Sequence record: PP261279.1 | Origin: Escherichia phage ECP2303 | DNA: 64,000 bases | Strand: one strand, 5' to 3' | Shown: positions 13,528-43,747 of the stretch, in pieces | Position numbering within the stretch: position 1 is the stretch's first letter | Layout: the number at the start of each line of letters is the position of its first letter | Program-made: the position numbers and the translations under genes | The notes under the pieces: generated by a model | Databases searched by the model: none | Told to the model about the DNA's origin: nothing | Seen by the model: the letters and a program-made list of their open reading frames with translations, nothing else

Positions 13528-16500
13528 TTAACGAGAAAAGGTTGCGTAGGCTTCTAGACGATACTGCTGGTCACCAGGGAACATAACACCTATAGAGGCT
13601 GTCCCTAGAATCCTGCCTTCCCTTCCAGACTCCATTCTGAACCCTACCCATCCTGAACTCCTTGCAGCCTCGATGTTGTCGCTATACCCGAAAGTGGCAA
13701 GATCGTCAACACCAGCCCCAAACAGCAACTGAAGCTGACTTCTCGGAAGCCCTATAATTTCAGGAATATACGCACCAAAGTACACCATCTGCCCTACCTT
13801 AGGACCGCTGCCGTACTCCATCGGTTTGCTTGTAGAGAAAGTCTTCATACCAGAAGTACCTGCCGGATTAGGGTATGCCCCGTTTGTTGCTGTACCTATC
13901 CACATTCTCCACTGTGGTGCCATCTGTTTAACAGTAAAAGATGTTGAGGACGTTTTGCGGCCTGCATCATCTGTAACTACAAACTTTATGGTGACATTCC
14001 CAGTAGCTTTAAATGTTACCAGTCCTGTGGTAGCATCCACTGTTGCAATGTTGGTATTGCTACTTTCCCAAGTCTTTCTAATCCCAGATACGTTGGAAGG
14101 GGTAATAGAAGGTTCCTGCATCTGCAGTTTACCGCCCACAATCCCTATGCCGTTGCCAGGATTATACAGTGCACCAACCTCGTCTATAATGTTCCCTGCT
14201 TTGAGACTATACTTCCTTGAGAAATTGTAGGTTCCGTTATAAGTGTGTGTCCCTGAGAAGGTGACATCTGCCTTCCCGTAAGAGATGCAAACCAACGCAT
14301 ACTTCCTGTCAGGCAACGTTTCTCCAGTCTCTGGGTGAGTTTTACCTACCTGGAACACACTCGGGTCAGTAGAGTCGTGACTATCACTAACGGAGCTTGG
14401 ACCGCCCATCAACTGTGACAAACAATTCCTTACCCATGTCCAGTTATTATCGCTGGAGAAGTCCACAGTCAAATCAAACACAACCCACTCATTTGGCTTC
14501 CACACAGGTGTTGTAATGGACTTGCCTACACCACCTCCTTGGAGTGTTGCCGACTGTTCAGTGATCAGGGCCGCATAGGCCAGAGTTCCTAAACTCAGAG
14601 TCTGGCTTGCTGTCCTCACTACCTTAGAATCAGCATCTGTGAAGTTGTTGATGATTTGGAATGTGCCATAAGTGTTTTTACAGGTAATTCTGGCGTTCAG
14701 TGTGTCAATCTTCCTCACATCTGCCATAGCAGTGTTAGACACAGAGAAGTCAGAAGCTTTAGCTGAGTTTGCCGCAACAGCAGGATCAACGTTAAGAGTT
14801 GCGTTGAACTGACAAGCAGGAGTAACCAGTAGCTTGTTATCACCTATTTGCTTCCATGAAACACTTTGAACAGGGAGATTCCATTTAATACCTGAGAAAA
14901 CCTTAGCAACCCTTGGCCCCAAAGCTCCAGTCCTGTTGTCTTTACAGCACATAGACATGGTGATCGTTGACGGAGTGGCCTGACCAAATAATTGCTGTGC
15001 TTTTGCAGAGGACATAGTGTAGAAATTGTCCTTAACAAACTCATCAGCAGCTAAAGATCCATCAGCTCTCCACCACTGAACCTGATACCCTGTTTTGTCC
15101 CAACCACCGACCTGCTTCAAGTCCTCCCAGGAGATTTCCAGATCCCCGGTGGTAGGATTGATTGCAGCAGTTCCTGGTGTTCCAGATGACCATATTGGAA
15201 TATCGAACCACGCTGGTTTAACCGACTGCACTGCGCTGGGACCTATTGCGGCAGCAAGTTGCTGGCCCATCAATACGCGAGCATCTTTCACCAGACCCCA
15301 CTCAATCATAGACCCAGAGTAACCTTCTTTCTTGTAGGCTGAGGATCCGTTCAAATGGATGAGTCGGCTTGTGCCAAAGTTATGTGCTCCACCACCGTTG
15401 TCGTCTGCAAAATTGGTTATGATTCTGTCCCTGATATTTTTCCATGCCCTGCCTCCAATCTCGTAGTCATGGTCATAACATCTTTGCAGTGTTGTCCAGC
15501 AAATGATCGCCATCCTTCTACCATTGCTGAAGCCAAAGGCCTGATCGTTAAGCTCTCTCCACAAGTAGCAGTTGGTGGTCCACATGGCCCTATGAATGTT
15601 AAACCAGTTTATAGATTTGGCTGAGTTGTTCCACTGAGTCCCAGGTAATTCAGGCCATACTGCATTAACCAGCATGTCTTCTGTTCCTGCATCAACCAAG
15701 AACCCTCTCACCTTCTTACCCATGCCTACCCTATCTTTTGCAATCCAACTGCCAAACAATCTCAGTTTTGGACCGTAGACAACATCTTCCGGATGCTCAA
15801 AAGAAATATATTTTAGGTATATTGTAGGGTCACCATAGGTGCCATCACAAACAGCTTTGTGCATGTTCTCACCAAGGTCTAGACGAAGTCCTGTTACAAC
15901 TCTAGACGTGTCGGTGAATTTGTCTGTTAAATCAAACTCATACCACCACCAACCTGCACCCAACAATACTTTCTTACAACGCTGTGCATCTGTATCAGAT
16001 ATTCTCTTATCGCCTGCAAAAGGTGAGTCAGCAAACTGATAGTGCAGAGCAACCTCAAAAGGATGTGTGGATGTCCCGTTTTCTGCAAGAACTTGTTTAC
16101 CTATCAGGTCGCACTTAATGATCATCACAACACGTTTGTATCCGTTTGTTACCGGAATTTGCATGGACATGGATGTCCCATCCATGTTTGATCTCAGTGC
16201 AGTCATGATGATATAAGGGTCAACGGCATTGCCCAAAGTCTCAGGACCGGGGATTATCTTATACTTCTTGACCTGCCCCATGATGTAGTCACTTGCGTAA
16301 GTTGCCTCATTCAAGCAAGATCCTCCACCAGGTAACTCACCAGGTCCCCAGAAAAATGCGCCGTAACAGTTGTAGAACCACTTGTTAGGATCGTATTTAT
16401 TCTTGAAGGTCTGAACCTCGTTGGCCTGTTTTGTCAAGAAAACCTGCGTGTCTGTGAAGATTGCAGGGTTTACTCTCGCCTGTCTTGGAGGGTAACCTGT

Positions 16501-24356: not shown

Positions 24357-26429
24357 TTATGAGAAGTCTGGCGGGACAACATCTTCTACATACCCTTTCA
24401 GAGCAACCTGCCCCATATGAAGCACGGTAGAATCTCTAGCGGTAACAGTGATGCTGTCAGACATTACTTGCGGGTATGCCCACACATACTGTTTTACCTC
24501 AGGGTATCTATACTCTATAGTTGCCATGTTTCCGCAAATACATCTCCATAAAAATTCTTGGTAATTCCTAGTTGGGTCATAGCCATATACCGGAGCAAGC
24601 TCTTTACTAGGAACGAACCCTGCAAGGTATTGTATTTCAGACGGTTGCCAACCTAACCTAACGATAGGTATGTTTACAGACTCTTTTGCCTTTTCAATAC
24701 CTCCCTGCATCACCCAATCGTAGCACTCGGTGCAGAAGAAATCAAGAGCACCTGCTTCCTTTTTATATTGGTCAGCAAGGTTCAGCTTTTGTGTAAGCTC
24801 GGTTTCCATAATGGTTGGGAAAAACAGCAAAGCTGTCATCTGAGCTGATGCAGCGTGTGCCTTTACTGCCTTTGAAATAGCCGCAATACGAGCGCCAAGC
24901 TTACCACGACAAAATGCCACATACTTGTCGTAAACACCGCCAGTTTTAGGATCGTCAATAGTCCCAATATCTAATGCATACTCACCTGTCTCATCATAAA
25001 ACGCCTGCTTTGTAGGGTAATCATAAATACAAGGCCTACGAGTATCGGTATTGTACCACCACCACGGTTCACCAACCTGCATAATCACTGGCAGGTTGTT
25101 TCTCATAGCGGCTGATGCAAAATTCTTAAATACTGCAGTAAGGAAATTCATACCCTCTTCAATGGTTGGAGATAGGAGGTAGCTACAAGGTGTATACCCT
25201 GTTTTAGCGTAGTTATCGTTCCAGTCTCTTTGGGTCCATTCCAACGGGCAGGCATCGCTGAAAAGCTCAAAACTTACAGATTGCATAACGTCGAAGTTAT
25301 GTCGTTTGGCATTGTACATAAAATCATCATGCCATTTATAAGCTGCAGCGTTTAGCGCTCCTGTTCTGTTTATAGACCATTGGGTTCCGGACCATGTGTA
25401 GTCATAATAATGACTCATACCAACATAATGGTTTATGGTTCCGGTATATCCCAGACGCTTGATATTGTTCAACACCCTTAAAGGAGAGACGTTCCACATA
25501 TCGTCATATGCGGTGCAGATCCCAACGTCGTGCTCTCTCACCTGAATATTATTAAGTTGCATCATTTTCCAGCCTGTGTCTGGCTGAAGCAAATCTAGGC
25601 GCAACTCACACTCTACATTTTCCGTTCTCGGGTCTGTGCTATTACTTACCCAGTCTTTAGGCATGAGTGGTATTAAAATCCTTCTCACCTGCCGAGGATC
25701 AACACCCATCATGTTGTTGTTCTGGTCCATCCCGACGCAGTCCTCGAAATCAATATGAATTTCTGCAACATTCTTATCCTCTGAGATGCTGACAGCATAT
25801 TGAGCTAAAGGAACATAGATGATTGTGCCATCAACAAGGTCTACAGTCATAATCATCTTTTCAGGAGTGGAGAAGTTGCTGGCGTTGGTTATTGACATTC
25901 TGAACCAAAGTTTGGTGTTTCTCATCTCATAGTGATCATCAAACCCAATACCGAAATGGTCATACTTGTCAACTGTTTCCCAAATGCATCCAGCCATACC
26001 CCCATATGTTCTTGACACTAAACGGTTAATACAACAGTTGTTATCTGCAACAATACAGGTACTTTCAGTCTGCTGAGTAGTTGTAACCCAATATCTTGGG
26101 TGGAACATTCTCTCCTCGACAGTATCCCAAGATATCCTGTCAAGATTCTCATCTGAAACTATTGTACATTTCGCCCTTTGTGTCCCGATCATCACCCCTT
26201 GAGATTTTGATGAAAACTCCATAAAGAAGCTTCTTGGCAACCTGTTGGGTAATTTGTCAACAATTTCCACCGGAATCTCAATACTGGTTGCCCCGACTGG
26301 GATAGTTACATCGCCCTCAACATGATCATAATCCCTACCAGGAACGGCAGTATCCTGAACTGTGCGGTAATGAAACTGCGCAGCCATTGTAGAGTAATCA
26401 CGGTAAGGTTTAAAAACAGCTGTTGCCAT
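24357..26429 (-). CDS. Structural protein with N-terminal Calx-beta-like motif; possible fibre proximal part or carbohydrate-active domain
   Basis: Calx-beta-like motif near the N-terminus (VPGRDYDHVEGDVTIPVGATSIEIPVEIVD). Trp/Tyr-rich C-terminal domain. Position is equivalent to the proximal part of an H-like fibre. Confidence 0.55.
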   Translation of the reverse strand: MATAVFKPYRDYSTMAAQFHYRTVQDTAVPGRDYDHVEGDVTIPVGATSIEIPVEIVDKLPNRLPRSFFMEFSSKSQGVMIGTQRAKCTIVSDENLDRISWDTVEERMFHPRYWVTTTQQTESTCIVADNNCCINRLVSRTYGGMAGCIWETVDKYDHFGIGFDDHYEMRNTKLWFRMSITNASNFSTPEKMIMTVDLVDGTIIYVPLAQYAVSISEDKNVAEIHIDFEDCVGMDQNNNMMGVDPRQVRRILIPLMPKDWVSNSTDPRTENVECELRLDLLQPDTGWKMMQLNNIQVREHDVGICTAYDDMWNVSPLRVLNNIKRLGYTGTINHYVGMSHYYDYTWSGTQWSINRTGALNAAAYKWHDDFMYNAKRHNFDVMQSVSFELFSDACPLEWTQRDWNDNYAKTGYTPCSYLLSPTIEEGMNFLTAVFKNFASAAMRNNLPVIMQVGEPWWWYNTDTRRPCIYDYPTKQAFYDETGEYALDIGTIDDPKTGGVYDKYVAFCRGKLGARIAAISKAVKAHAASAQMTALLFFPTIMETELTQKLNLADQYKKEAGALDFFCTECYDWVMQGGIEKAKESVNIPIVRLGWQPSEIQYLAGFVPSKELAPVYGYDPTRNYQEFLWRCICGNMATIEYRYPEVKQYVWAYPQVMSDSITVTARDSTVLHMGQVALKGYVEDVVPPDFS

Positions 26430-27126: not shown

Positions 27127-28617
27127 TTAAATAGTTTGTTGGAAAGTTATATTACTTTCGTCGAGGTCAAACACCTCGGTCATGTTCGCAACAATATCGT
27201 TTGTAGTGTAAGCTTCATCAGAAGCTCCTACTGGTTTAACTTGAATTACCAGTCTATTAAATCTGCCTATTGACACAGCAGCAGATGCAGCACCGACCAA
27301 TTGGATATTATACAACGTATCTGCAACATCCAGTCCGTTAACAACCTGTAAAAGAGCCTCTACAATGGCATCTTTTTCGGTTGTGGAAAGCGCAGCACCA
27401 GAGTAGGTAATTCTTACATCCAGGCGGTAGGTATTTGCCTTGGAGTAATAAATTCTTTCAGTTTGACCGTCAGATGTAGTGACATCGTAGAAAATATTAC
27501 CATAAGTCCTGTTCGTACAGGCTATAGTTTGGTAAAGTGCTTGGCAAATGTCCTCCGTTGCACCACCAAACACAACCACTTGGAACTTGTAAGGAGGTAT
27601 ACCTTTAGCATCAGTTTTATCGGTGTTGTTGGAGAACACTCTCACTTTCTCAACACCTTTCACCTCGCTTACAGCGCTAAGGATTGCAGGACGGGTAGCC
27701 TTAGATGTTAACTGTTTTGTGCTGGAAGCTCTTAAGCGATACTCTGAGTCTTTCTCAACATCTCTGCCCTCATTGAATCTTTCTCGGTTGGTAAGTTTGA
27801 TAAATCCACTAGGGGTAGGTGACATTGTTGTCACGGTTTCTGCCTCTCTTGACAGCTCACCAGCCTCGTTAGCGATAACATCCAGGGTGATAGTTCTTTC
27901 TCCTACAATCGGGGATACTCTGAAATCTACCCTGCTATTAAGTCCAACTTGATCAAGATTCGAATTGTACCCTATCCACAACGTTCCTGTCAACATATCG
28001 ATCTGAATCAAATCGTCGTTCAACAGGGTTGTATTATCGACAATGAACTGCTTAATCTCTCCGTAAAAGCTTGGCAGATCAGAGGAGTCCAGAGCCTTAT
28101 CTGTTAAAACCAGACTTTTTGTTTTGATACTTCCGTCTGTCTGGTTGGTAATTTGAAAGTTGTATTTCCCAATTCTTAGGTCTGGAGCGTTTATTCTGTG
28201 AGCAATAAGATTTCCAGCCACCTGCACATCGTTGCTAAGAACAAAGTTGCCACTGTCCAGCGTATAAGTTTTGGAATCATAAATCATATTGTACGGCACA
28301 GTTGTGTTGATTGTCAACTGGCAGGTACCTGATGATTTAGAACGGCCTCTTCGGTAAATACCCTGCCTTCCAAGAAGCTCATCCAGGTAAATACCTTCTG
28401 CCCCATACAGCGTCTGTGATGCGTATACAGATGCTGCCATAAGAATAAGTTGATATTCTCGCTCGTTGAAAATAGTGGTCAGCTTATCTGCAACTGAGTT
28501 ACTCTGTACGTTGAAGTTTTCGCCAAAAGCACGGATCAGGCTTTGCTTAGTTTCAACGATTAGGTCATTTAGGGTTGGTATAACGAAACCAGCCTCTGTC
28601 AATCCATACTTAGCCAC
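27127..28617 (-). CDS. Baseplate J-like wedge protein
   Basis: 496 aa. N-terminal pattern (LTEAGFVIPTLNDLIVE...AFGENF) and size fit the baseplate J/gp6 family. Sits in a V-(W)-J-I-H-G-like order. Confidence 0.55.
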   Translation of the reverse strand: MAKYGLTEAGFVIPTLNDLIVETKQSLIRAFGENFNVQSNSVADKLTTIFNEREYQLILMAASVYASQTLYGAEGIYLDELLGRQGIYRRGRSKSSGTCQLTINTTVPYNMIYDSKTYTLDSGNFVLSNDVQVAGNLIAHRINAPDLRIGKYNFQITNQTDGSIKTKSLVLTDKALDSSDLPSFYGEIKQFIVDNTTLLNDDLIQIDMLTGTLWIGYNSNLDQVGLNSRVDFRVSPIVGERTITLDVIANEAGELSREAETVTTMSPTPSGFIKLTNRERFNEGRDVEKDSEYRLRASSTKQLTSKATRPAILSAVSEVKGVEKVRVFSNNTDKTDAKGIPPYKFQVVVFGGATEDICQALYQTIACTNRTYGNIFYDVTTSDGQTERIYYSKANTYRLDVRITYSGAALSTTEKDAIVEALLQVVNGLDVADTLYNIQLVGAASAAVSIGRFNRLVIQVKPVGASDEAYTTNDIVANMTEVFDLDESNITFQQTI

Positions 28618-28697
28618 GTCACTCCTCCGGTATGAAAATCTCTACAAGGTATTTTACCAAATTTTGTAACAATAGTCAATCTGAGCATAAAAATAAA

Positions 28698-28713
28698 CCC
28701 CGCCGAAGCGGGG
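28698..28713 (-). terminator. Intrinsic terminator (UUCG tetraloop hairpin + U-tract) downstream of the J-like gene
   Basis: Minus strand reads AGCCCCGC-UUCG-GCGGGGUU followed by UAUUUUUAU. Confidence 0.7.
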
Positions 28714-28722
28714 CTTTAAAGG

Positions 28723-31700
28723 TTAGTCGTGAGACTCGTTCCAAGGTCCTTGGAAACTAGAGTTAGAACGGCTTACCACAACAGTAGGACAGGATATTGC
28801 GACCCCTGTTACAGAAGACGTTGACCATGGTGTGTAGATTTCAACAACAATATCTATGGTTTGTTCACCAAGACCCGTTATCCCTACTGCACACATACCG
28901 TTGTTGTCGTTTCCGTACTTCTTACCTGCAAGGATTTGATGTCCGGCTATCCAAACGTTAAGCTGGGAGCCAGACAAGGTTCCGTTTAGTTTAAAGAAGA
29001 ATGTTACGTTCTTACCTTGTCCTGAAACGTTGTCCACATATCTCCACCTCCAACGGCAAACCCTCTGCTGTGAGTTATATACTGGAGGACAGTCACCGTA
29101 GGTTCTGTGTGCAACTATTGCACCTTCGAACTGGTTAGCACGGATAACAGAAGCTTCTACACGCCCACGAAAGGTACCTCCGGTTGCATCTATGGTGCCC
29201 CTAAAGCTACCATTATTGGCATAAACATCCCCACGGAAGGTACCACTAGTGGCGTTAACTGCCCCTGTGAAGTTACCAGAACTGGCGTTGATGTTGCCTT
29301 TCACCCACACATCCATAAATTGGGCGTGCCCGTTCTTGTTAATATACCAACCGTATTTATGGTACCCGTTGCCATCGTAGTTGTTTGACGAAATTTCTTG
29401 TGCGATCTTGGCAGATGAAATCGTCCCGTTCTCTATAAAAGCATCTTTCAAGAACGCTTGGTTGTTCTTGATTGCGAAAGCAAGGGTTGCTGTTCCATTT
29501 CCAGGGTTGTATACCGCAAAATTGTTTGCACTAACCATGAAGTAGGATTGAACTTGGCCTCCAGACCCTTCCATCCCCAACTGGATACCTGCAACATATT
29601 TATTCCCTGCGGAGTCTACCTGTATTTTTGTGCCCCATTGAGCATTTACTTTACCCTCTAAGTCGGTTACAGCCTTAGATGTTGTAGCTACTGCAGCCCT
29701 GATCTCGGACACATCCCCAACATCATCAATGATCTCCTGCTTAGCAACAGCAAGTTCTTGACGAATAGCTGACGCTGTGCCGTTGATAAGGTCCACAGTA
29801 GCTTTGTTGGTATCGGAAATTGTAGCATCCAGCGCTGTTTTTGTGGAAGTCAGTTTTCCATCCAAAGCATCAATCGCCTGCTTGTTGGTAGAAATCTCCC
29901 CACGTGCAGAAGTTATCTGCTCTGACAGTGCAGATGTTTTCTGATTCAACAAGTCAGTGGTGGCCTTGTTGGTATTGGCAATCAAGGTGTTGAGGTCAGT
30001 TTTTGCGGTGGTTATCTTGCCATCCAGGGTGGTATAGTTTTTAGATACCGTCGCGTTTGTCTGACTGATCTTTTGATCCAGAGTTTCAGATGTCCTGTTC
30101 AAAAGATCCACAGTTGCCTGGTTAGTGCTCAAGATGCTTGCGTCAAGTTCTGTTCTCTGAGTATTGATCTTACCATCCAGAGTTTTATCTCCGGCTAAAT
30201 ACCCGCTCTCAACTCCCTCTATCTGCTCTACCAGCTCACCTTTGGCGGCAACCAATTTCTCATCTAAAGCCTCTGTCTTTTTGTTCAGAAGATCAGTAGT
30301 TGCTTTATTGGTTGTCTCGATCAGAGATGCCAGTCTGCCACTTTCAGTGTTCAGATCGTTGGTGAATTTGTTCTGTGCAGCAACAAGTTTCCTATCCAGC
30401 GCTGTAATGTTACCATTGACATCTTCAAACTTCTGAGTTGTTTCTGTAACTACCGCACCTATTCTGTCCCCAAGTTGTTGGAACGCTTCATCTACCCTAC
30501 CATCCATGTACCTGTTAAGTTCTGTGACACGATTTTCAACCTCTTCAATAGAGGAATCCAAAGTGCTCATCAACTCTTTATAAGTTTCTGTCTTTTTGAA
30601 TTCAGCATCTATCTGAGGCATCAAATCCTCAATAGAGGTATAGCAGCGTGCAGCGCATTCTACAAACTGAGAGCTACCAAAAGCGTTTGTGGTTCGAATA
30701 TACCAATAATAAACCTTATCGTTCTGCAGACCTTCAGATGTCCAAGTCGAACCAACACCCATACGGGTGGCTTCTGAAGTAACGGTTGCATCACTAGTGT
30801 CTGGCAACCTTGTCATACCAGATGTCCAAAAGTCATACTGGGTGCTTACACTTGCTAAATCCCTGCTGTGTGGAATCAAGGTGATAGCAAAGTATCCTTG
30901 CTTAACCTCTACAGAAACAGGAGCTTCAGGTGCCTGAATGTTAAACTCGCAGTACGCTTCTGGAGATACACCACCTTTATAAGATGTTGCAACCACGGTT
31001 GCTGTGTATGACCCTTTGGTCAAGCCTTCTACTCTGACAAACTGCTCAACTGTCTGTGCTGTCCAAACAATCTCTCCGTTCTTTCTTACCTGCACAATAT
31101 TTTGAGCGTAAGTTCCAACGTTGTCCCAAGCCAAAACACCGTGAGTTACTTCCCCAGCTTGGAGAACGGAGTATCTGAAGTTTTGCGGTTGAGCTACACC
31201 GGATGGGGATATCGGAATATCTACATCGCCGGAATCCGGAAGTTGCCCTGTGGCATCATTCCACTCTTTAGCATCTTGACGAAGTTTTACCTTGACACCG
31301 CCCTTTTTGGTGAACTCCCATTCAAGAACCCTCATTTCTTGGCCCACTATACCAATACTTGGGAGATTCATTGTAACGTAACGGCCAGGTTTAAATTTAA
31401 AACCTCGCATATTGCAGGTGACTTCAATAATCCTGCCAGCTCTAGCACGTCTTAAAAATATTGCAGAAACACGCTGAGCTTGATAAGGGCTGGTAACAAA
31501 GCGGTAGTCTATATCGATTATCTTTCTTTCTCCATCCTTCTCTATCCACTCTGGGACAAACACTGATGGAAAATCTGTTTCAGAATACCCTTTGGTCGGA
31601 CTGGTGAATCTGCCAGTTATTGTGTTGGATCTTTTGTCAAACGAGGCTTCCGGATAGATCTTAACCTCACCACAGACACAGTCCTCACTCAGTGTCATTG

Positions 31701-32562
31701 TTGCCGGACCATAATATGCACCTACCAGCAGTCCATACTTACCAGCTACATAGCTGAGATCTGCACCACAAGCTTTCAGCATTTCTGCCATAATACTTGC
31801 TGGGGCCTCATCCATATCGAACTCGCCATTAATGGTGTAACGGCGCTCACTAGTTCCGTCCGCGTTTCTTACCGCCTCATCGCATATGTTAGCAGCCTCC
31901 TTGAAGGACTCCCAGTTGATGGTTTCGTCAGGACATTTAAGGTACGTTCTTAAATAGTCTAGAATCACCAAGGCCGCGTTATTGGTATACACCTCTTTAC
32001 TGATACGAGGATCATAGCATTTTTTACCAACCTTGACGAGTGTAACGTTTGGCAACCCAAAAGGGAACTTGTTAGGGTCAAACCTGAAGCTGGCACGTAG
32101 CCAACTGATCCCTCTACCTATCATGTCTGGTGACCACGACGGGCAGTGTGTACCCATGAAAGGATCAGATGTTTTTCTGTCGTTATGTAGCTCCCACGAT
32201 ATCAAATCTCCATACGAGGAAATAGGATTACCGTCGATGAGTATATCTTCTATACCTTCCAGGGGATGATTGGCAAGAACAATAGCACAATGGAGGGTCC
32301 TGTCCCTGTCCTGCTCCAAAAACGCAAGTAATCCAGATGTGCGTGTCTTCCCATACACTACAGAGCAAGGTGCAGCAGAAGATCTGAGAAGCTTTTGTCT
32401 ATCTTGCTGACTTCTGTAAGATTTGTTGCCCTCAAAAATCTTATCCAGAGTTCTGGTGGTAACAGTGTTCAGGCTGTCAGCCAGAGCTGCCTTGGATGCG
32501 TTCCAGTCATAACTTGAAGATCTTGCAGAAGCAACGATGTTATCAATCATTGCAATTGGCAT
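28723..32562 (-). CDS. Lambda gpJ-like host-specificity / central tail fibre protein with internal coiled-coil repeats
   Basis: 1279 aa. Segments align with lambda J as recalled from memory: EFNIQAPEAPVSVEVKQGYFAITLIPHS, YYWYIRTTNAFGSSQFVECAARC, and a C-terminal NASSGNFTGAVNATSGTFRGDV region. An insert of four approximately 50-aa repeats (TNKATTDLLN...) lies between them. Confidence 0.75.
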   Translation of the reverse strand: MPIAMIDNIVASARSSSYDWNASKAALADSLNTVTTRTLDKIFEGNKSYRSQQDRQKLLRSSAAPCSVVYGKTRTSGLLAFLEQDRDRTLHCAIVLANHPLEGIEDILIDGNPISSYGDLISWELHNDRKTSDPFMGTHCPSWSPDMIGRGISWLRASFRFDPNKFPFGLPNVTLVKVGKKCYDPRISKEVYTNNAALVILDYLRTYLKCPDETINWESFKEAANICDEAVRNADGTSERRYTINGEFDMDEAPASIMAEMLKACGADLSYVAGKYGLLVGAYYGPATMTLSEDCVCGEVKIYPEASFDKRSNTITGRFTSPTKGYSETDFPSVFVPEWIEKDGERKIIDIDYRFVTSPYQAQRVSAIFLRRARAGRIIEVTCNMRGFKFKPGRYVTMNLPSIGIVGQEMRVLEWEFTKKGGVKVKLRQDAKEWNDATGQLPDSGDVDIPISPSGVAQPQNFRYSVLQAGEVTHGVLAWDNVGTYAQNIVQVRKNGEIVWTAQTVEQFVRVEGLTKGSYTATVVATSYKGGVSPEAYCEFNIQAPEAPVSVEVKQGYFAITLIPHSRDLASVSTQYDFWTSGMTRLPDTSDATVTSEATRMGVGSTWTSEGLQNDKVYYWYIRTTNAFGSSQFVECAARCYTSIEDLMPQIDAEFKKTETYKELMSTLDSSIEEVENRVTELNRYMDGRVDEAFQQLGDRIGAVVTETTQKFEDVNGNITALDRKLVAAQNKFTNDLNTESGRLASLIETTNKATTDLLNKKTEALDEKLVAAKGELVEQIEGVESGYLAGDKTLDGKINTQRTELDASILSTNQATVDLLNRTSETLDQKISQTNATVSKNYTTLDGKITTAKTDLNTLIANTNKATTDLLNQKTSALSEQITSARGEISTNKQAIDALDGKLTSTKTALDATISDTNKATVDLINGTASAIRQELAVAKQEIIDDVGDVSEIRAAVATTSKAVTDLEGKVNAQWGTKIQVDSAGNKYVAGIQLGMEGSGGQVQSYFMVSANNFAVYNPGNGTATLAFAIKNNQAFLKDAFIENGTISSAKIAQEISSNNYDGNGYHKYGWYINKNGHAQFMDVWVKGNINASSGNFTGAVNATSGTFRGDVYANNGSFRGTIDATGGTFRGRVEASVIRANQFEGAIVAHRTYGDCPPVYNSQQRVCRWRWRYVDNVSGQGKNVTFFFKLNGTLSGSQLNVWIAGHQILAGKKYGNDNNGMCAVGITGLGEQTIDIVVEIYTPWSTSSVTGVAISCPTVVVSRSNSSFQGPWNESHD

Positions 32563-32999
32563 TAATACCTCCAGACATCAACAACAATAGAATCTTTCAT
32601 GTCGAACATAAAGACCCCTTTATCACCTTTCGCCCAAATCTGGTTGTTCCAGAACACACCCGCGGTGAGTCCGTTCAGTCCTTCGAAAATAACAATATCC
32701 CCACGCTGAACCTGTTTAGGAGTGTCCAGTCGAGTCATAAAGAAATCAAAAATAGTAGGCAGGTGTGTGGTTTTGAAATGAAGCATGCACCATCTCTTGC
32801 TTTCCAACTCTGTTTTATACGTTCCTTCGAAGTTAGAAAGAAAATCTGTTCCGTATTGGGCATCAACACACTTAGCCGCAAAGGTGCAACAATCGTGGAA
32901 TCCCCATTCAAAAGGTATGGTGGCCTCTTCGTCAAACACTTTCCACAACCTTTCTTGCCAGTCCACTAGACGAGGATGTGTGCTCATTAAACCTCCCAA
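32562..32999 (-). CDS. Hypothetical tail protein (145 aa) with HDCC motif
   Basis: Directly upstream of the J-like gene with a stop/start overlap. HDCCTF motif may indicate a Cys-peptidase-like fold (speculative). Confidence 0.45.
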   Translation of the reverse strand: MGGLMSTHPRLVDWQERLWKVFDEEATIPFEWGFHDCCTFAAKCVDAQYGTDFLSNFEGTYKTELESKRWCMLHFKTTHLPTIFDFFMTRLDTPKQVQRGDIVIFEGLNGLTAGVFWNNQIWAKGDKGVFMFDMKDSIVVDVWRY

Positions 33000-33553
33000 A
33001 TGATCGGGCGGCTCGCCACCTGATCCACATATTTAAAAAATCTGTCGTTATCGTTTCTTGAGCTGTGGCTTTCCTCCGTGTACCGATAAGGAAAACCTCT
33101 TAACCAGCTGTTGAAGATGGAAGAGATGGATATGGACAAAGCACTATTCTCTCCTGTCTGGATAGCCATATCTGTTATAAGGCCGTCAAACAAGCCATTA
33201 GTTGTGACAGGCAGACCATTCTCCATAGCGGTAATGTACAACGTGGCACGACAACCAGAATACTCCGTCTTCAGCAGATCACCCACATACTTAGGATCAA
33301 ACCCGTTCAATGTTGCTACCACAGATCCGAAGTTGGTGGCATCTTTCTCAGACACAGCGGTCAATGTTGCTGATCCGCCTATCCCTATAAAATGTTGACC
33401 CTCAATTACTACAACACCAGTGCCTGAGCACACCCTGACAGTGCCTGTCGGTAGCTCCAGCTTTGCAGCAATTAAGATCTCAACACCATCAAGCTCTAGC
33501 TTTTCAAGAAATAAATTATCTAATGGCGCTCTGATCATCTTAGAAATCCTCAA
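32987..33553 (-). CDS. Hypothetical tail protein (188 aa)
   Basis: Co-oriented, overlapping-start ORF in the tail-tip module. Confidence 0.45.
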   Translation of the reverse strand: MRISKMIRAPLDNLFLEKLELDGVEILIAAKLELPTGTVRVCSGTGVVVIEGQHFIGIGGSATLTAVSEKDATNFGSVVATLNGFDPKYVGDLLKTEYSGCRATLYITAMENGLPVTTNGLFDGLITDMAIQTGENSALSISISSIFNSWLRGFPYRYTEESHSSRNDNDRFFKYVDQVASRPIIWEV

Positions 33554-34130
33554 AGAAGTTGATAACTATATTATCACCTTTTTGCATAGCATCGACTTTT
33601 TGCTTAATTTTATAAATATCTCTGATATGGAACCTACCCTTCGGGGATTGAGTTATTATCTTCATAGTGTCCCCTGCGGCAATAGGTTTTCTAAGTCTTG
33701 GAGATATGCTTATAACAGCAGACCCAACACCATCACTACGCACTGGAGCTGTTACCACTTTCAATTCATCATTGACAGATATTTTATCCCCAGCTCTGGC
33801 TATGTCTCTGTTTGGCTCCCATCCGACCGTATTCAAAAAATCGTCGTTGCCAGTAGGCCCAAGGGCGATTGGCTCATTAGCTGTTACTGAGTGACCGTAA
33901 GTTTTAATGAGAAAGATGTTCCCATCTTTATACACCTGATCAACAAAGCTTTTAAGCTCTAGCAACTGTGACTCGCTGATATTGGAGACCGTCAAAGTGC
34001 CTTTCCAGTTAGGTGTGGCATAGGTTACTTTTTGCGTCTTACCTGTAAACGGACTTTTAAACGTAACAATATCTGCCAGCAGCTCCAATCTAATATCTGG
34101 AAGGTATCTAGGCCTTTCCCATAAAAACAT
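33540..34130 (-). CDS. Hypothetical tail protein (196 aa)
   Basis: Co-oriented ORF in the tail-tip module. Confidence 0.45.
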   Translation of the reverse strand: MFLWERPRYLPDIRLELLADIVTFKSPFTGKTQKVTYATPNWKGTLTVSNISESQLLELKSFVDQVYKDGNIFLIKTYGHSVTANEPIALGPTGNDDFLNTVGWEPNRDIARAGDKISVNDELKVVTAPVRSDGVGSAVISISPRLRKPIAAGDTMKIITQSPKGRFHIRDIYKIKQKVDAMQKGDNIVINFFEDF

Positions 34131-34202
34131 TGTGCCTCCAGGTTAAACAATCATGATAGTTATTTTACCAGATTTTGAGTTAATACGCAATACAAACAAA
34201 AA

Positions 34203-34222
34203 GCCCCCGCCGAAGCGAGGGC
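34203..34222 (-). terminator. Intrinsic terminator (UUCG tetraloop) downstream of the 1266-aa fibre gene
   Basis: Minus strand reads GCCCUCGC-UUCG-GCGGGGGC followed by UUUUUGUUUG. Confidence 0.65.
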
Positions 34223-34229
34223 AAAACAG

Positions 34230-37200
34230 TTACTTCAATTTCTCTTGCAATCCAGTAACAACCTCTGTCAATTTTTTAACCTGCTCCTCAAGGGCGGTTA
34301 TTTTATCGTCCTGTTCCCTGCAAACCTGGACAAGCAAGCCTGTTACAGCTGCGTAGTCAACGTTATAGAACCTTTCCTCAGTCATTAAAGGAATGCCGTC
34401 TTGAGTAGGACCTTCTATTTCCTTCCTTTTCACGAAAGATCCTACTGCCTCTGGCAATGCTTCCATAACCTCTTGAGCAATCACGCCTGCATAAGGCATA
34501 CCATTCTCTTTCAAGGTGTAGGTATAGCCTTTCATCTTTCTAATTGCTTCCAGAGCGTTAGGTATGACCTCTATGTTATCCTTCAGGTCCCTATCGGAAC
34601 TTTGACTAACAGTAGTACATTCTACCGTGCCGTTGACAGCAAAATATCTTGATTTAGCCTCATCTGCCTTAGCACCACAGTGGAATACCCAGCTGGCGAC
34701 TGTTGAGTTATCACTTATCTGAAACTCCAGCACATTCTTCCTATCTGCGCCATTACCCCAATAGTACAACCTACCTGTATTAGAAGGCATGTTGGAAGTG
34801 TTGGTAACATCCGCACCACCACCTGTGTGTATTGTGAACTCCGGTTCAAGATTGGATCCTTGAGTTTTTAAAGTGATACCTTTACCACCAAGCTGCTGCC
34901 AATGGCCCCATGTGAAAACACCACCTATCGTTGTTCCATAACGCAGGAATTTTTCTCCAAGATATGTCGTATATTCCTGTACGCAACTCTCTGGAACGTT
35001 GGCATAGTTTCTGTAGACAACGAGAGTACCTGCCTGGGAGCATGGGTAGTTTTTATCAAGTGCGGCCTGAGCATTAGCCTCCTGATGATAAAAACCCTCT
35101 CTATCCCCTTTGTAGTCGTTAAGGTCATTAGTCCCCAGCCCTTGACCACGGTGCTGAATAACTTTGTTCCATGCCCTATGGTTACCACCCTCGATAGATC
35201 TGGTGTATAGCTGATCAAGGCGACCAGCCATTTGGAAGGCATAGTTTCCAGAAAACGCCACAGACAGCCCACCAACAACCATCGAACCTTCAGGTCCGTT
35301 GACATTGCCTGCCATTATTTTAGAAGGGTTGTTAGGACCAAACTGGTTGTTCCAGTCTGCACCAGTATGGCATACAAAACCACCTGGAGCTGAGAAAGTA
35401 CCATCCTTGTTGAAGTTGTAGAATCTATGAGCTGTGCCTACAACATCGCGAACAATAACTTGACCAGCTTCCGGAGTAGATCTGAACTCTGCCTGGCCTT
35501 TGAGACCAGCACCATTACCGCATTTAGAGGTAAACGTACCGTTAGTCAGATCCTCTGTCCCATCAGATGCACACTGGAATCCTGCATTAGAGAATAACGC
35601 CTTTCTAGGACTGCCGTAGCACAAATAGTCAAGACCGTCTGCCCATAGCTCGACTTTTGGCATATTCATTTTGCTCATCACAGCATAGCGTTCAGCAGTG
35701 CCTATATAGTGCCACTGTGTGCCGCCGCCAGTGTAGAACCCTGAAGTACCTTTAAAATCAACAATAGGTCTGGTATTGGTGTTGTTATCTCCAAGAATGG
35801 CAAGATTCAAATCTGCTGACTGAAGAGGTGCAACGAACTTAACCCCATCCTGATTGTCTGTTACAGAGCCAACCTGGTAATCTTGCTCTCTGGTAAACAC
35901 TTCGACAACATTTCTACTTGCGTATATGCTGACAGGGAAAGCACGAGCCTCTACATAGAAAGCAACATACTCTTGTTTACCCCTTGTTGGAGCAACCATC
36001 CCAAGAAGTGCTTTTTCATTCTGGTAGAAATTTACTACCCCGTAGAAAGCGTCCCCTCTGTCTGTCCAACCACCAGTTCTATAGTGACACTGTAAGGTAG
36101 CACAGTTCATAGGGTCACCGCCGGATGACGATCTGGTAACTATGGTAATATCAGTGCCAGTTGCTGGAGCATAGTACGGATCTGTTCTAACGATAATTGG
36201 GTAGTATTTCCCATCTTCCATCCCTGCGGTTCTTGGCAGTGTTAAGAAGTCTTTTACACCTGCTGCTATAGGAACTTTGAACAGATTCTGAGCATCTGCT
36301 AAAGTTGTGGCTCCAGTACCACCTGCGGCGTGAGGTAAAGGTTCCCACTTGGCCTTCCGGTTGTTATAAACACCCCATTCCAAACTGCCGTTACCGGATT
36401 CGTCCATCCCGCCATCCCAGATAACCATCTTGGCGGCTTTCTTGGACCCCCAAAAGCCTCTTTCTGCTCCTGAACTACGGATCCACTCCCCAAGTCCCCA
36501 GTTTGTCAGCTGACCAGTAAGATCCCCAACCTGCATATATTTAGGACAGTCTAATACACCGTCCTCGCGGAAACCTAAATATCTATGAGTTTCAGATCCT
36601 TTTGCACCTTTGTGGAGGTGGATTGTCAACCAAGCCTTATTGTCGTTTCTTACCTCAGAATAGATCCTATAACCATGCTCAAGAATACCATCAGTATTAT
36701 ATTTATCTCCATGGAGAATACCTGAGGCCGATTTAACATCTCCAGAGTATTGAGCTAAGTAAAGGTGCCCGAAGGCTGGCGAGTTGTTTTTACCAAGGCC
36801 GATATGAGATCTGAAAGTATCATCGTTACGAGGTCTGACCATCGGCTGCCATGCAGTCCACTGGTTTGTGTTGGCCTGATAGGTTCTCAAATACCAAACA
36901 TCTACGTTAGAAAATGGATAGTATTCCTGACGACAACCTGTACCGCCGTTAGCATTGTTCTGCCAAACAATCAAGTGACCAGCACCAGAACCTGCAGGGT
37001 AACCATTTGCCTCAGTTGCATAAGCAGTCATCGGCTGGTAGTATACGCCATCCTGATTACCAGTCAAGTTATTGATATTGAAATTTGGCTCAAGGGCTGC
37101 ACGTTGCTTATAGAAAGCACCGATATTGATACGGACTCCAGCGGCATCTCTAGCCCCTGTGCCGCCTTGCTCTATAGCAAGAGGTTGCCACGAAGCTGTT

Positions 37201-38030
37201 TGTTGGTTCCACATACCCCAACGGCCTGTTGCATCAAGCTGCAAGTACCCTGCCGTATTTAAATCATCTCCAGCACGGATAACTGTTCTTGTTGGGTTGT
37301 TTGCCTCTAGGCGTTTAAATTCATCACGAAGTGCTATTCTTTTCGTTGTTGCTACACCGTTGGTTACTGCAATGGTGTACATGGCTCCGGTGGTAGCGCC
37401 ACGGAAAATACCATCAACAGTTGTAGTATCACGACGAGATACCACACCGTTCAGAAATTTTTCACCAGCTGCTACAGAAGGGTAGTTGGTAGTTCTTCCC
37501 TCTTCAATAACTGCAGGGCCAACAAAGTTATCGAGGTGAATAACATCGCCTACAGTGTGCACTGTACCAAAATCTACACGCTGTGCAAGTGCTTTGGCAT
37601 CGTTAGCTGTCTGAACAGTAACATCCATTACATCCTGGACAGACTGCCCTTCGGCTGTCATGATCATAGATGCGCCAATGGTAGATTCCAGCTCCTCCCT
37701 TAATGACGGATCTGTATATACCATCCATGCAGCGTCAGTAATCCCACCATCGGAGTACGGTGAAGACAGTGCAGGAACAGTGTGTGGAAATTCGCCTTTC
37801 CAACGTAGGTAGAGGTCTTCCTCTTCGAAGTAGGCAAAATCCATTGGGCCGTTTAACTTACCACCTTCCTTAAAGGAGATTACATGAGAAACAGTCCCAT
37901 CAACATGGACAACATCGCCAATTTTTACACGACGGGTCAGGTCTGGTTGTTGAACAACCAGGTAATCATCCTCTGTCACTGCGGTAGTGGCAGGAAGAGA
38001 TTCAATTCTGACAACTTTAATATCAGCCAT
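34230..38030 (-). CDS. Tail fibre / tailspike with C-terminal intramolecular chaperone (peptidase S74) domain
   Basis: 1266 aa. C-terminus (SDRDLKDNIEVIPNALEAIRKMKGYTYTLKE...GVIAQEVMEALPEAV...YNVDYAAVTGLLVQ...ALEEQVKKL) matches the self-cleaving chaperone domain of endosialidase-type fibres. N-terminal domain is shared with the 222-aa ORF at 40665. Confidence 0.8.
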   Translation of the reverse strand: MADIKVVRIESLPATTAVTEDDYLVVQQPDLTRRVKIGDVVHVDGTVSHVISFKEGGKLNGPMDFAYFEEEDLYLRWKGEFPHTVPALSSPYSDGGITDAAWMVYTDPSLREELESTIGASMIMTAEGQSVQDVMDVTVQTANDAKALAQRVDFGTVHTVGDVIHLDNFVGPAVIEEGRTTNYPSVAAGEKFLNGVVSRRDTTTVDGIFRGATTGAMYTIAVTNGVATTKRIALRDEFKRLEANNPTRTVIRAGDDLNTAGYLQLDATGRWGMWNQQTASWQPLAIEQGGTGARDAAGVRINIGAFYKQRAALEPNFNINNLTGNQDGVYYQPMTAYATEANGYPAGSGAGHLIVWQNNANGGTGCRQEYYPFSNVDVWYLRTYQANTNQWTAWQPMVRPRNDDTFRSHIGLGKNNSPAFGHLYLAQYSGDVKSASGILHGDKYNTDGILEHGYRIYSEVRNDNKAWLTIHLHKGAKGSETHRYLGFREDGVLDCPKYMQVGDLTGQLTNWGLGEWIRSSGAERGFWGSKKAAKMVIWDGGMDESGNGSLEWGVYNNRKAKWEPLPHAAGGTGATTLADAQNLFKVPIAAGVKDFLTLPRTAGMEDGKYYPIIVRTDPYYAPATGTDITIVTRSSSGGDPMNCATLQCHYRTGGWTDRGDAFYGVVNFYQNEKALLGMVAPTRGKQEYVAFYVEARAFPVSIYASRNVVEVFTREQDYQVGSVTDNQDGVKFVAPLQSADLNLAILGDNNTNTRPIVDFKGTSGFYTGGGTQWHYIGTAERYAVMSKMNMPKVELWADGLDYLCYGSPRKALFSNAGFQCASDGTEDLTNGTFTSKCGNGAGLKGQAEFRSTPEAGQVIVRDVVGTAHRFYNFNKDGTFSAPGGFVCHTGADWNNQFGPNNPSKIMAGNVNGPEGSMVVGGLSVAFSGNYAFQMAGRLDQLYTRSIEGGNHRAWNKVIQHRGQGLGTNDLNDYKGDREGFYHQEANAQAALDKNYPCSQAGTLVVYRNYANVPESCVQEYTTYLGEKFLRYGTTIGGVFTWGHWQQLGGKGITLKTQGSNLEPEFTIHTGGGADVTNTSNMPSNTGRLYYWGNGADRKNVLEFQISDNSTVASWVFHCGAKADEAKSRYFAVNGTVECTTVSQSSDRDLKDNIEVIPNALEAIRKMKGYTYTLKENGMPYAGVIAQEVMEALPEAVGSFVKRKEIEGPTQDGIPLMTEERFYNVDYAAVTGLLVQVCREQDDKITALEEQVKKLTEVVTGLQEKLK

Positions 38031-42071: not shown

Positions 42072-42749
42072 TTAGTGCGGTCCACTTGTCTCGCCATCAG
42101 GGCAAGAGTGGGTATGACCTTTATATTCTGCATAGAATGAATCCAAATCCACACCAGCAGCAGTTATAATTCTACCAGATGGGTCTATTGTGGCACCATT
42201 CATTCTGATATTTCCATCCACAGCAGCTCGCAAATTGGCAGCCCCGTTAGTGAAAGAAAACTCCCCGCTACTGTCGCACCGTAATGTCCCACCAGGTGTT
42301 TGAAGCTCAAAATCGCCAGAAGGTGTCAGTTTAAAATAAACCATATCATTCCATAACTCTACGTTATCAGGATCGATCTGTAAAGCGTTTGAGTCTGAAT
42401 GAACAGAGGTGATTGCCCACCCTGGAAACAGGCCGTGAGTTTGTTGATCGTCGTTATTGTTTTCATTTCTCTCTGAAAACTGCAATCCTACAACATCCCC
42501 AGCCTTAATAGGAAGTGTTAACCTTGCCTTTCCGCTGTTTGCAGACATCACCTGAATTGGAACGTCATAGATAAGAGGGTATCTCTCCACATCCCCGTCA
42601 TCAAACGTGGTTTCAGCTATTGGCTGCACGGCTGCAGAAGGTATACTGTAGTCAACACTGACAACTCTGGCCCTGATACTGGTGTGATAGTCCCTCATTA
42701 TTTTTTCTATAAAGGATCTTACAGCAGCATCTTTCCTATTTATTGCCAT
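42072..42749 (-). CDS. Baseplate central spike (P2 gpV-like)
   Basis: 225 aa. C-terminal apex motif GHTHSCPDGETSGPH (His-x-His) as in gpV-type spikes; located in the hub region downstream of the tape measure. Confidence 0.6.
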   Translation of the reverse strand: MAINRKDAAVRSFIEKIMRDYHTSIRARVVSVDYSIPSAAVQPIAETTFDDGDVERYPLIYDVPIQVMSANSGKARLTLPIKAGDVVGLQFSERNENNNDDQQTHGLFPGWAITSVHSDSNALQIDPDNVELWNDMVYFKLTPSGDFELQTPGGTLRCDSSGEFSFTNGAANLRAAVDGNIRMNGATIDPSGRIITAAGVDLDSFYAEYKGHTHSCPDGETSGPH

Positions 42750-43747
42750 TATACCTCCTCAGTTTTGTCAACAACTCCACCCACTGTTTCCCCAAGGCCA
42801 AGCTCTGTAGTGTAATCACCGCCTTCTATGGTGCCCTTATGATGCACCGTGATCACCTTATAGAAGCCTGTATATTGCCTGCTTTTAAGATAAATAGTGG
42901 ACTCTGGGAGGATAGCTCCGTTAAGGCATGTGGTTACAGTAAGGCCAACATCCTCTCTCGGGTTTTTCTTTTTCTTACGTGTGCCACCTTTCGCAGCAGC
43001 TTTAGCTTTTCGCTTTTTAGCAGGTTCTGGGTTTTTAGGGGTAGGTGATCCGTGCATCCCAGACTCTGCACTTATTTCAAACACAGAGTCTTTAAACCTT
43101 TTTCCAACCTTAGTCCAATACAAAGCCCCATCCTGAACGCTAAATGTGGAGTTGGTCAGCCTTGCAAACCTGCGGAGGTTCTCTGCAGTGTTTCCAGAGA
43201 AAGCCATAGAGTATTGCAAAGTCTGGTTTCCAAAACCAACAACCCTACCTTTTGGCAAGTTCATATCCTTCAGCAGGTCATTAAGCACAGAGTTCAGAGG
43301 TGTACCTTTCTGATAAGATCTTGTGCTTTGGCACTTAATGATGTTCTCAGTGCCATCCCCAAAGATGAACTTAGTTTTTCTGGTCGGGCCTTCCCATCTG
43401 TCCTCAACAAACTCTACAGTTCCAGAGAATATCAACTGGTTCTCATTGTCATAGCCAGCCTCAAACATAACTGCAAGAGCATCAGCTTGATGCATATCCA
43501 GATAGTTAACTGTATCGTCAGACAGGTTGTAAACTGTCACATAGCCTTTGTTTGGCTCTTTGGTATTGTCCTTTTGTATGTCAAACTCTATATTGGCAGC
43601 ACCAGTGTCCGAGCTAATCTCATAAACTCCGGAATCACTCTCTCCTTTCTTTTCAACAGATTTTGGGATATTGGTTTTTGATTTACCGCCATGCTCTACA
43701 GGACGACCAAATAATAATCGCCATGTTCTACGTCTGTACTCTGCCAT
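42749..43747 (-). CDS. Baseplate hub-associated protein (332 aa) with Lys-rich segment
   Basis: Co-oriented in the baseplate module; contains KKRKAKAAAKGGTRKKKK. Confidence 0.45.
   Translation of the reverse strand: MAEYRRRTWRLLFGRPVEHGGKSKTNIPKSVEKKGESDSGVYEISSDTGAANIEFDIQKDNTKEPNKGYVTVYNLSDDTVNYLDMHQADALAVMFEAGYDNENQLIFSGTVEFVEDRWEGPTRKTKFIFGDGTENIIKCQSTRSYQKGTPLNSVLNDLLKDMNLPKGRVVGFGNQTLQYSMAFSGNTAENLRRFARLTNSTFSVQDGALYWTKVGKRFKDSVFEISAESGMHGSPTPKNPEPAKKRKAKAAAKGGTRKKKKNPREDVGLTVTTCLNGAILPESTIYLKSRQYTGFYKVITVHHKGTIEGGDYTTELGLGETVGGVVDKTEEV

Follow-up and report, generated by a model that had tools for sequence, protein, structure and literature searches.

In lambda, T5 and F-type pyocins, the tip complex closes the tail tube and opens upon binding of the fibre to its receptor. 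In the F7 pyocin, the coiled coil before the tip domain converts to a beta-prism and drives tape-measure ejection, and the same fold switch has been predicted for 21 of 24 siphophage central fibres (He et al. 2026, PMC12874032). In the myophage rV5, gp37, a protein with COG4733 and a gp27-like match, has been listed among the virion proteins (Kropinski et al. 2013, PMC3606486). We analysed a stretch of 64,000 nucleotides from Escherichia phage ECP2303 (sequence record PP261279.1; hereafter the window), in which the open reading frame (ORF) at positions 28723-32562 on the minus strand, with an ATG start and 1279 amino acids (aa), is the orthologue of rV5 gp37. The literature and GenBank already cover the gene, the J-like annotation and the occurrence of the protein in the virion; the interest lies in the context, which is that of a siphophage tip operon within the baseplate locus of a contractile tail. 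Public annotations of the gp37 orthologues conflict ('central tail fiber J' versus 'lateral tail fiber'), and in the BASEL study it was described as unclear which genes build which rV5-like fibre (PMC8594841).

Judged by its sequence, the source genome is that of a Vequintavirus, an rV5-like myophage. The gp37 gene is 100% identical over 3840 bp in phage ECP2309 and shows 96-97% DNA identity (99% at the protein level) in rV5 (V5) and more than 100 other Vequintavirus genomes; the coordinates of the rV5 genome are approximately equal to those of the window. Besides, 18 'Campylobacter phage' records (host C. jejuni) within GenBank MG065644-MG065682 are 96-99% identical to the gp37 gene, and their host label looks doubtful.

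The gp37 protein was divided into the following parts, listed with their positions in the window.

32422-32562, minus strand: N-terminal extension (aa 1-47), hydrophilic
31153-32421, minus strand: siphophage baseplate-hub domains of the pb3/gpJ type (aa 48-470), from profile search, AlphaFold2 (AF2) and Foldseek
30607-31152, minus strand: Ig/FN3-like domains Ig_J and Ig_J_second (aa 471-652), from Pfam, phmmer and BLASTP
29638-30606, minus strand: proline-free segment, predicted helical coiled-coil shaft (aa 653-975), from composition and AF2 at low confidence
29638-30312, minus strand: four tandem repeats of ca. 55 aa (aa 751-975), TN[KQ]AT[TV]DL[LI]N...LDGK...
29188-29637, minus strand: Phage_Tail_Tip domain with beta-helical GxxxG-type turns (aa 976-1125), Pfam E-value (E) 1.2e-38, shared with lambda J, the F2 pyocin fibre and T1 J
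28726-29187, minus strand: distal C-terminal domain, putative receptor-binding end (aa 1126-1279), from variable sites and weak homology

The original prediction, made from the letters of the sequence alone, placed the protein in the gpJ family on account of its FN3 region, and this assignment was borne out. BLASTP aligned gp37 aa 498-684 with lambda J residues 667-850 (30% identity, E 2e-17), phmmer matched gp37 to PDB 8iyk (E 2e-28), and Pfam recognised Ig_J (PF24421), Ig_J_second (PF24489) and Phage_Tail_Tip/DUF1983 (PF09327); the FN3 domains follow the hub and precede the tip. The family phrog_31, 'central tail fiber J', matched with E 1e-163. The further similarity claimed for the C-terminal region of lambda J was found in the tip-fibre domain (gp37 aa 916-1126 with lambda J residues 808-990, 29% identity, E 4e-18) and did not extend to the receptor-binding end: BLASTP against lambda J gave no match for the last ca. 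150 aa of gp37, nor for the first ca. 490 aa.

Since the N-terminal third had no BLASTP match to lambda J, it was searched on its own. When this domain was scanned against 1.8 billion representative proteins, 9718 relatives were obtained, in which it was always N-terminal, in proteins of 430-3300 aa. A 19-sequence profile searched against the PDB gave T5/DT57C pb3 as the best match (E 1.6e-28, gp37 aa 70-491 with pb3 residues 265-767), and the same profile also found T1 J (9l9p) and the F2 pyocin fibre (E 1.6e-10); gp37 aa 198-407 matched lambda J residues 266-482 at a profile E of 2.4e-6. The AF2 model of the N-terminal hub (pLDDT 77.5, pTM 0.75) retrieved with Foldseek pb3 (TM 0.62-0.65) and lambda J (0.50), as well as the hubs of the gene transfer agent (GTA), T1, Chi, JBD30 and Sf11, while gp27/VgrG-type hubs of myophages and type VI secretion systems reached a TM of only ca. 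0.28. The siphophage hub fold thus assigned covers gp37 aa 50-440. The hub match, together with the Ig_J, Ig_J_second and Phage_Tail_Tip domains, places gp37 by domains, profile and fold in the gpJ/pb3 family of hub-plus-fibre proteins. It is not an equivalog of lambda J (NCBIfam lambda_TipJ, NF049904: 153 bits against a cut-off of 1950), and it carries none of the known lateral-fibre-type baseplate adaptors at its N-terminus, which is the hub fold. A fused gpI as the N-terminus of the family was considered and not supported (4 bits for the profile against lambda gpI).

The gp37 gene is the last of four genes, in the order Dit-like gene, gene of a 183-aa protein, DUF6950 gene and J, and the three genes that precede it are as follows.

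33540-34130, minus strand: Dit-like distal tail protein, 196 aa (rV5 gp40), phrog_1302 over the full length, E 2.9e-50
32987-33538, minus strand: tail protein, 183 aa (rV5 gp39), phrog_2048, E 9e-68, ATG at 33538
32562-32987, minus strand: DUF6950 protein, 141 aa (rV5 gp38), Pfam PF22262, E 4.5e-33, ATG at 32987

The genes are tightly joined, with 1-nt ATGA overlaps between the 183-aa and DUF6950 genes and between the DUF6950 and J genes, and with a 1-nt gap after the Dit-like gene. The mechanically called ORFs 32987-33553 and 32562-32999 begin at TTG; the annotated and conserved starts are the ATGs at 33538 and 32987.

Outside Vequintavirus, gp37 has its nearest relatives in Queuovirinae siphophages, where they are named 'J-like tail tip proteins' (48-57% identity). 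In two of these phages, Seuratvirus WildeMaa and Nonagvirus FritzHoffmann, three small genes between the tape measure gene and J are homologous to and collinear with gp40-gp38. Compared with WildeMaa, the Dit-like protein is 32% identical to the product of the gene that directly follows the tape measure gene, and identities of 40%, 44% and 54% were obtained for the 183-aa protein (gene 18), the DUF6950 protein (gene 19) and J, respectively. The order tape measure, Dit, tail protein, small protein and J recurs in Vibrio phage K478a and on a metagenomic contig of 62 kb that is Queuovirinae-like; no sheath gene was seen in either. The tail loci of Mydovirus KB57 and Justusliebigvirus EmilieFrey contained no homologue of any cassette gene, and their other tail and baseplate genes were collinear; KB57 belongs to the same subfamily and its wedge protein is 60% identical, and EmilieFrey is phi92-like. 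In Septuagintavirus W70, by gene numbering, the wedge gene adjoins a phrog_4233 baseplate gene. The identity values of gp37 fall from at least 95% (Vequintavirus) straight to below 60%, and those of the 183-aa protein, which is 100% conserved in nearly all Vequintavirus records listed, from at least 99% to at most 40%. The simplest interpretation is that the Vequintavirus lineage once, long ago, acquired a siphophage tip module in complete form. Alternatively, the cassette may have been ancestral to Vequintavirinae and lost elsewhere, which would leave the family assignment unaffected. The original prediction had described the tail tip as a siphophage/myophage hybrid on the strength of gp37 and its baseplate neighbours; this description can be extended, as the three genes upstream of gp37 also appear to be siphophage tip genes.

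In hhalign, the 183-aa protein gave a weak but positionally sensible match with T5 pb3 residues 57-176 (E 0.028), and it may be the counterpart of the N-terminal hub domain that is missing from gp37. BLASTP and hhalign of the small cassette proteins against lambda L and K gave nothing, nor did a profile of the Dit-like protein against T5 pb9. A reading of the DUF6950 protein as NlpC/P60 was set aside, as a DCC motif had been noticed by eye only, with no database match behind it.

Transcription signals were found on both sides of the cassette.

34203-34222, minus strand: intrinsic terminator (rV5 t041), 8-bp stem with 7 GC pairs, CTTCGG loop and T-run; follows the preceding fibre gene and marks the upstream edge of the cassette
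34161-34176, minus strand: late-promoter-like motif AAAATCTGGTAAAATA (rV5 P040), precedes the Dit-like gene
28695-28716, minus strand: intrinsic terminator, immediately past the gp37 stop codon; bounds the cassette downstream
28650-28665, minus strand: late-promoter-like motif AAAATTTGGTAAAATA (rV5 P036), precedes the wedge gene

The two terminators look alike, being GC-rich with CTTCGG loops, and each is followed by AAAAT(C/T)TGGTAAAATA. The late-promoter-like motif has two matches in the window against 0.17 expected, and P040 and P036 are two of the eight predicted rV5 late promoters (Kropinski 2013, Table S4; PMC3606486); the terminator after gp37 (28695-28716) is not in the published rV5 terminator table. 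The terminator-promoter pairs on both sides and the tight junctions thus indicate that gp40-gp37 form one predicted late transcription unit.

The ratio of non-synonymous to synonymous substitution rates (dN/dS) was computed against phage EduardKellenberger, and the following values were obtained, with the numbers of synonymous and non-synonymous differences.

Dit-like gp40: dN/dS 0.04, 7:1
183-aa gp39: dN/dS 0, 12:0
DUF6950 gp38: dN/dS 0, 14:0
gp37: dN/dS 0.027, 136:14
Core wedge gene, for comparison: dN/dS 0.008, 36:1

Since dN/dS is at most 0.04 in all four genes, the cassette is in use and under strong purifying selection. These values bear on the idea that the cassette is an evolutionary leftover or an assembly-only factor, which would be expressed and have no role in the function of the mature virion. 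Its weak detection in virions would suit this idea, and published receptor screens assign the cassette no phenotype. However, dN/dS of 0-0.04 over 5.4 kb is as low as that of the core wedge gene, 119 of 120 listed gp37 orthologues have kept the length of 1279 aa, the 183-aa protein shows 100% conservation in nearly all Vequintavirus records listed, as described above, and the cassette has its own late promoter and terminator. We regard a leftover as highly improbable.

The genome also encodes a complete contractile tail, and the genes that are relevant here are listed below.

48905-50281, minus strand: sheath gene, followed by the tube and chaperone genes
45131-47470, minus strand: tape measure gene, after the tube and chaperone genes
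42749-43747, minus strand: gp27-like hub, preceded by the tube initiator and a gp25-like protein
42072-42749, minus strand: central spike, gp138/gpV-like (phiTE baseplate spike, E 1e-61; phi92 gp138, E 5e-18)
27127-28617, minus strand: Baseplate_J wedge (Pfam), the next gene after gp37

The sheath gene and the two baseplate neighbours that had been named beforehand, a gpV-like spike and a baseplate J-like wedge, are thus all present in the tail locus. On the minus strand, one baseplate protein and three fibre/spike genes lie between the spike and the gp37 cassette; past the wedge come a second baseplate protein, an N4 gp65-like protein, short fibres and more large fibres. The cassette does not directly follow the tape measure gene, from which it is separated by 11 kb with the hub, spike and three fibre genes intervening, and it shares the genome with a sheath gene. 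The axis is complete and canonical for a myophage, with tube initiator, gp27-like hub and gp138/gpV-like spike.

Of all 19-aa windows in aa 1-47 of gp37, the most hydrophobic has a Kyte-Doolittle value of 0.31; the corresponding median for the 148 homologue representatives is 1.97. In 121 of the latter, values of at least 1.6 are reached, so that the first ca. 50 residues are strongly hydrophobic, as they are in both Queuovirinae proteins; several GenBank records of homologues label this part 'TMhelix containing'. The hydrophilic stretch of gp37 has the same length as the hydrophobic segment of the siphophage homologues and stands in its place. Although aa 1-47 is the part most changed with respect to the siphophage homologues, it has zero variable sites among 119 Vequintavirus orthologues. 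The distal 154 aa (1126-1279) have about twice the variable-site density of the rest of the protein, and this domain is ca. 30% identical to the J C-termini of Klebsiella T1-like phages and phage 9g. A literature search of incomplete coverage found no paper in which the cassette is recognised as a tip module of siphophage type, in which its lack in sister genera is reported or in which the changed N-terminus is mentioned.

We propose that a Vequintavirus ancestor took the four-gene tip cassette from a Queuovirinae-like siphophage, and that the captured cassette came to lie, as a late operon of its own, between the genes of the side fibres and that of the wedge. In this proposal, gp37 would be a trimer-forming hub-plus-fibre protein, and the four products would still assemble into a tip-like complex. 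The complex may be attached to the contractile baseplate, where it would act as an additional fibre for long-reach host recognition and not as a DNA conduit; puncture would be left to the phage's own hub and iron-type spike, and DNA passage to sheath, tube, hub and spike. A recognition device is favoured over a conduit because the hydrophobic segment is now hydrophilic and a full myophage hub and spike are encoded, and the distal domain may be the host-recognition end since it is the most variable part of gp37. On balance, it seems rather probable that the captured tip complex serves on the baseplate as an additional recognition device of this kind. Docking at the periphery would fit the 'lateral' label given in BASEL as well as an axis that already has all its parts.

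Several observations weigh against this proposal. The mass spectrometry (MS) support for gp37 in rV5 is thin (four peptides and 5 spectra, with one good tryptic peptide), and gp38, gp39 and gp40 are not among the 19 proteins of the rV5 MS table (PMC3606486); these spectral counts are too shallow for copy number, the sheath itself having only 15 spectra. Cryo-electron microscopy (cryo-EM) of two Vequintavirus baseplates placed three other fibres and not gp37 (PMC12143355). Genetics in K-12 assign adsorption to the NGR/ECA glycan and the lipopolysaccharide (LPS) core via other fibres (PMC8594841), so that every receptor is already accounted for. The folds of gp38-gp40 were not confirmed against solved structures, single sequences and 3-sequence profiles giving no significant match. 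Finally, a ring-plus-cone complex has 6- and 3-fold symmetry, which suits an axial site better than a peripheral one.

In a rival reading, in line with the central position given in the original prediction, gp37 would be a central fibre in the true sense, with the Dit ring and the cone of gp37 as an axial cap under or around the hub and spike. A siphophage-type central fibre would then stand ahead of the contractile puncturing device, and receptor binding at its tip would open the cone and license contraction. Apart from the axial 6-fold/3-fold symmetry, such a cap would account for the purifying selection on all four genes, the ring protein included. The N-terminal 47 aa, which lie inside the cone in the siphophage relatives, are changed and yet invariant in the 119 orthologues, which is what a new specific partner would lead one to expect; several GenBank/RefSeq records also say 'central tail fiber J', by homology only. 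On the other hand, the axis is already full, its tube initiator, hub and iron-type spike being homologous to parts resolved in phi92 and phiTE, and in both structures the spike tip is free. The virion structures of phi92 and phiTE are those of relatives without the cassette. Published Vequintavirus baseplate maps report no axial cone (PMC12143355), and the cassette lies the said 11 kb from the tape measure gene, the C-terminus of whose product seeds such cones in siphophages. An axial position is thus thought unlikely. In Vequintavirinae, RBPseg described a fibre whose coiled coil is large and whose N-terminus is central-fibre-like; it was left unplaced in the maps and may be the gp37 orthologue (PMC12143355).

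Between the FN3 domains and the tip, gp37 carries the repeat block that had been claimed beforehand to be absent from lambda J, and lambda J indeed lacks this coiled-coil block. The two J-matching blocks overlap by ca. 40 residues in lambda and are ca. 230 residues apart in gp37, and the distance from the last FN3 to the tip domain is 318 aa in gp37 against 38 aa in lambda J. The four repeats, estimated at first at ca. 50 aa each, start at aa 751, 813, 864 and 918, with units of 62, 51, 54 and ca. 55 aa. Pairs of repeats are 40-52% identical, and their local scores are 8-21 standard deviations above those of shuffled sequences, none of 500 shuffles reaching any observed score. While the repeats are thus significant at the protein level, no tandem or long direct repeat was found in the DNA, as searches of the gp37 gene with Tandem Repeats Finder (TRF) and for direct repeats gave only short chance matches; the duplication is therefore old and has been kept at the protein level. 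A comparison of copy number among relatives gave no variation within the genus (a length of 1279 aa and 98-100% identity in 119 of the 120 closest proteins listed), and the repeat unit was not found in 149 representatives of the family.

The insert is not peculiar to gp37, and the likeness of its repeats to fibre-shaft repeats, noted beforehand, was not supported. Across the wider family, the linker between FN3 and tip ranges from 17 to 2474 aa and some members have their own repeats, so that the insert is ordinary for the gpJ/pb3 family. In the nearest siphophage relatives, those of Queuovirinae, the helical linker is ca. 100 aa long; that of gp37 is ca. 210 aa longer, and the excess corresponds essentially to the four repeats. 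In the metagenomic contig L009 10001-18805 (P0121), from a Queuovirinae-like siphophage, a 2934-aa J-like protein has a FN3-to-tip linker of ca. 2000 aa with a CBM_4_9 domain, which illustrates the extent to which the linker can grow. As to the likeness to fibre shafts, the repeats do not appear to be beta-structured. The region of about aa 651-975 contains no Pro, Trp or Cys, has 14% Thr and is rich in Thr/Val/Ile/Ala, and the proline-free segment shows a hydrophobic period of 3.6, that is, alpha-helical periodicity; coiled-coil families match it weakly. The monomer AF2 model of aa 640-1279, which is of low confidence (pLDDT ca. 60 in the helix and 52.7 overall), has one long helix at aa 644-945 with a single break at ca. 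786-792, and beta strands from aa 955. If it were one continuous helix, the shaft would be a rod of ca. 44 nm, which would exceed the O-antigen layer, quoted as at most 30 nm (PMC11990801).

It can be asked whether this coiled coil acts as a fold-switching tether, changing upon receptor binding into a much shorter beta-prism as in the F7 pyocin. The energy of the switch would draw the baseplate through capsule or O-antigen to the membrane without any opening of the tube, and the four repeats would lengthen the stroke. The junction of coil and tip is homologous to that of F-type pyocins (gp37 aa 871-1078 with F2 pyocin residues 985-1184, E 2e-16), and the F7 precedent and the prediction for 21 of 24 siphophage central fibres (PMC12874032) give the idea a basis. 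The composition of the segment is compatible with it, being rich in Thr/Val/Ile/Ala and proline-free with a predicted helix, as is the predicted long coil directly N-terminal of the beta-strand region and tip domain, both according to the low-confidence AF2 model. Nevertheless, the SxSxxMxxLxS pattern occurs 15 times against 9.9 ± 2.9 in shuffles, an enrichment that is not significant, just the last ca. 100 residues of the coil align with the pyocin, and weakly, and the repeat unit of gp37 is unique to Vequintavirus. A fold-switching tether is considered unlikely. Quite doubtful is the combination in which the Dit ring, the 183-aa protein and gp37 form an axial receptor-gated cap over the spike, with a fold switch of the coil that opens the cone and licenses or aids contraction; if true, this would be the first case of a functioning siphophage trigger on a contractile tail.

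Other large proteins of the tail locus were noted besides. The fibre gene next to the cassette (34230-38030, minus strand; 1266 aa) encodes an N-terminal anchor of the CBA120 TSP1/Gp66 type and a C-terminal Peptidase_S74 intramolecular chaperone; with 3801 nt, compared with 3813 nt in the EduardKellenberger orthologue, it is among the variable fibres. The 690-aa protein at 24357-26429 (minus strand) has the N-terminal and TIM-barrel domains of the N4 gp65 'non-contractile tail sheath' and in addition a Calx-beta domain, and is a homologue of phi92 gp142, the reported NGR/ECA-glycan-binding fibre of these phages. The 1878-aa product of 13528-19164 (minus strand) is rV5 gp27, which other annotations call a lateral fibre with an intimin domain; its gene ends the tail-fibre locus, and to the left of it the genes turn to the plus strand and the sign of the GC skew flips.

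Among E. coli myophages, those of the rV5 type belong to the most frequently isolated, and they are components of cocktails for biocontrol and therapy. One of their 'fibres' is in fact the hub-fibre protein of a complete, conserved tail-tip module from a non-contractile phage, with its own operon, and the locus clearly illustrates the passage of an entire tail sub-assembly from one long-tailed morphotype to the other. This raises the structural question of where a 6-fold ring and a 3-fold cone dock on a contractile baseplate, for which cryo-EM data sets of two such phages exist (EMD-51868, EMD-51869), and gp37 offers a natural test of the coiled-coil-to-beta-prism switch outside non-contractile tails.

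Among known systems, the J proteins of Queuovirinae (WildeMaa bas23_0020, FritzHoffmann bas20_0019 and phage 9g) are closest to gp37, with 54% and 48% identity over gp37 aa 48-758, 50% identity over aa 869-1124 and the same domain order; they are preceded by the same three genes with the same 1-nt overlaps. They differ in a strongly hydrophobic N-terminus, in a coiled coil of ca. 100 aa without the four repeats, and in the last ca. 130 aa, which are unrelated or only ca. 30% alike; unlike gp37, their genes follow the tape measure gene, in sheath-less genomes of 57-60 kb. RBPseg grouped a Vequintavirinae fibre with a Tempevirinae fibre in its class TC5, in a paper without discussion of neighbouring genes (PMC12143355). 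Lambda gpJ (PDB 8IYK, 8K35, 8XCG) is ca. 30% identical to gp37 in the FN3 and tail-tip-fibre domains, and has a longer hub region and an unrelated LamB-binding C-terminus; its separate partners gpI, gpK and gpL show no detectable sequence similarity to the cassette genes. T5/DT57C pb3 (PDB 7ZHJ, 7ZQP, 8HQZ) is the best profile and fold match to the N-terminal aa 70-491, with ca. 265 extra N-terminal residues that, from the weak match, may correspond to the separate 183-aa protein here, and the fibre part in T5 is a separate protein, pb4, unlike the single-chain gp37. The central fibre of F-type pyocins (F2, PDB 25vf; F7, PMC12874032) belongs to the same family and likewise has a long coiled coil directly before the tip domain, but it is axial on a non-contractile tube, where its switch ejects the tape measure protein.

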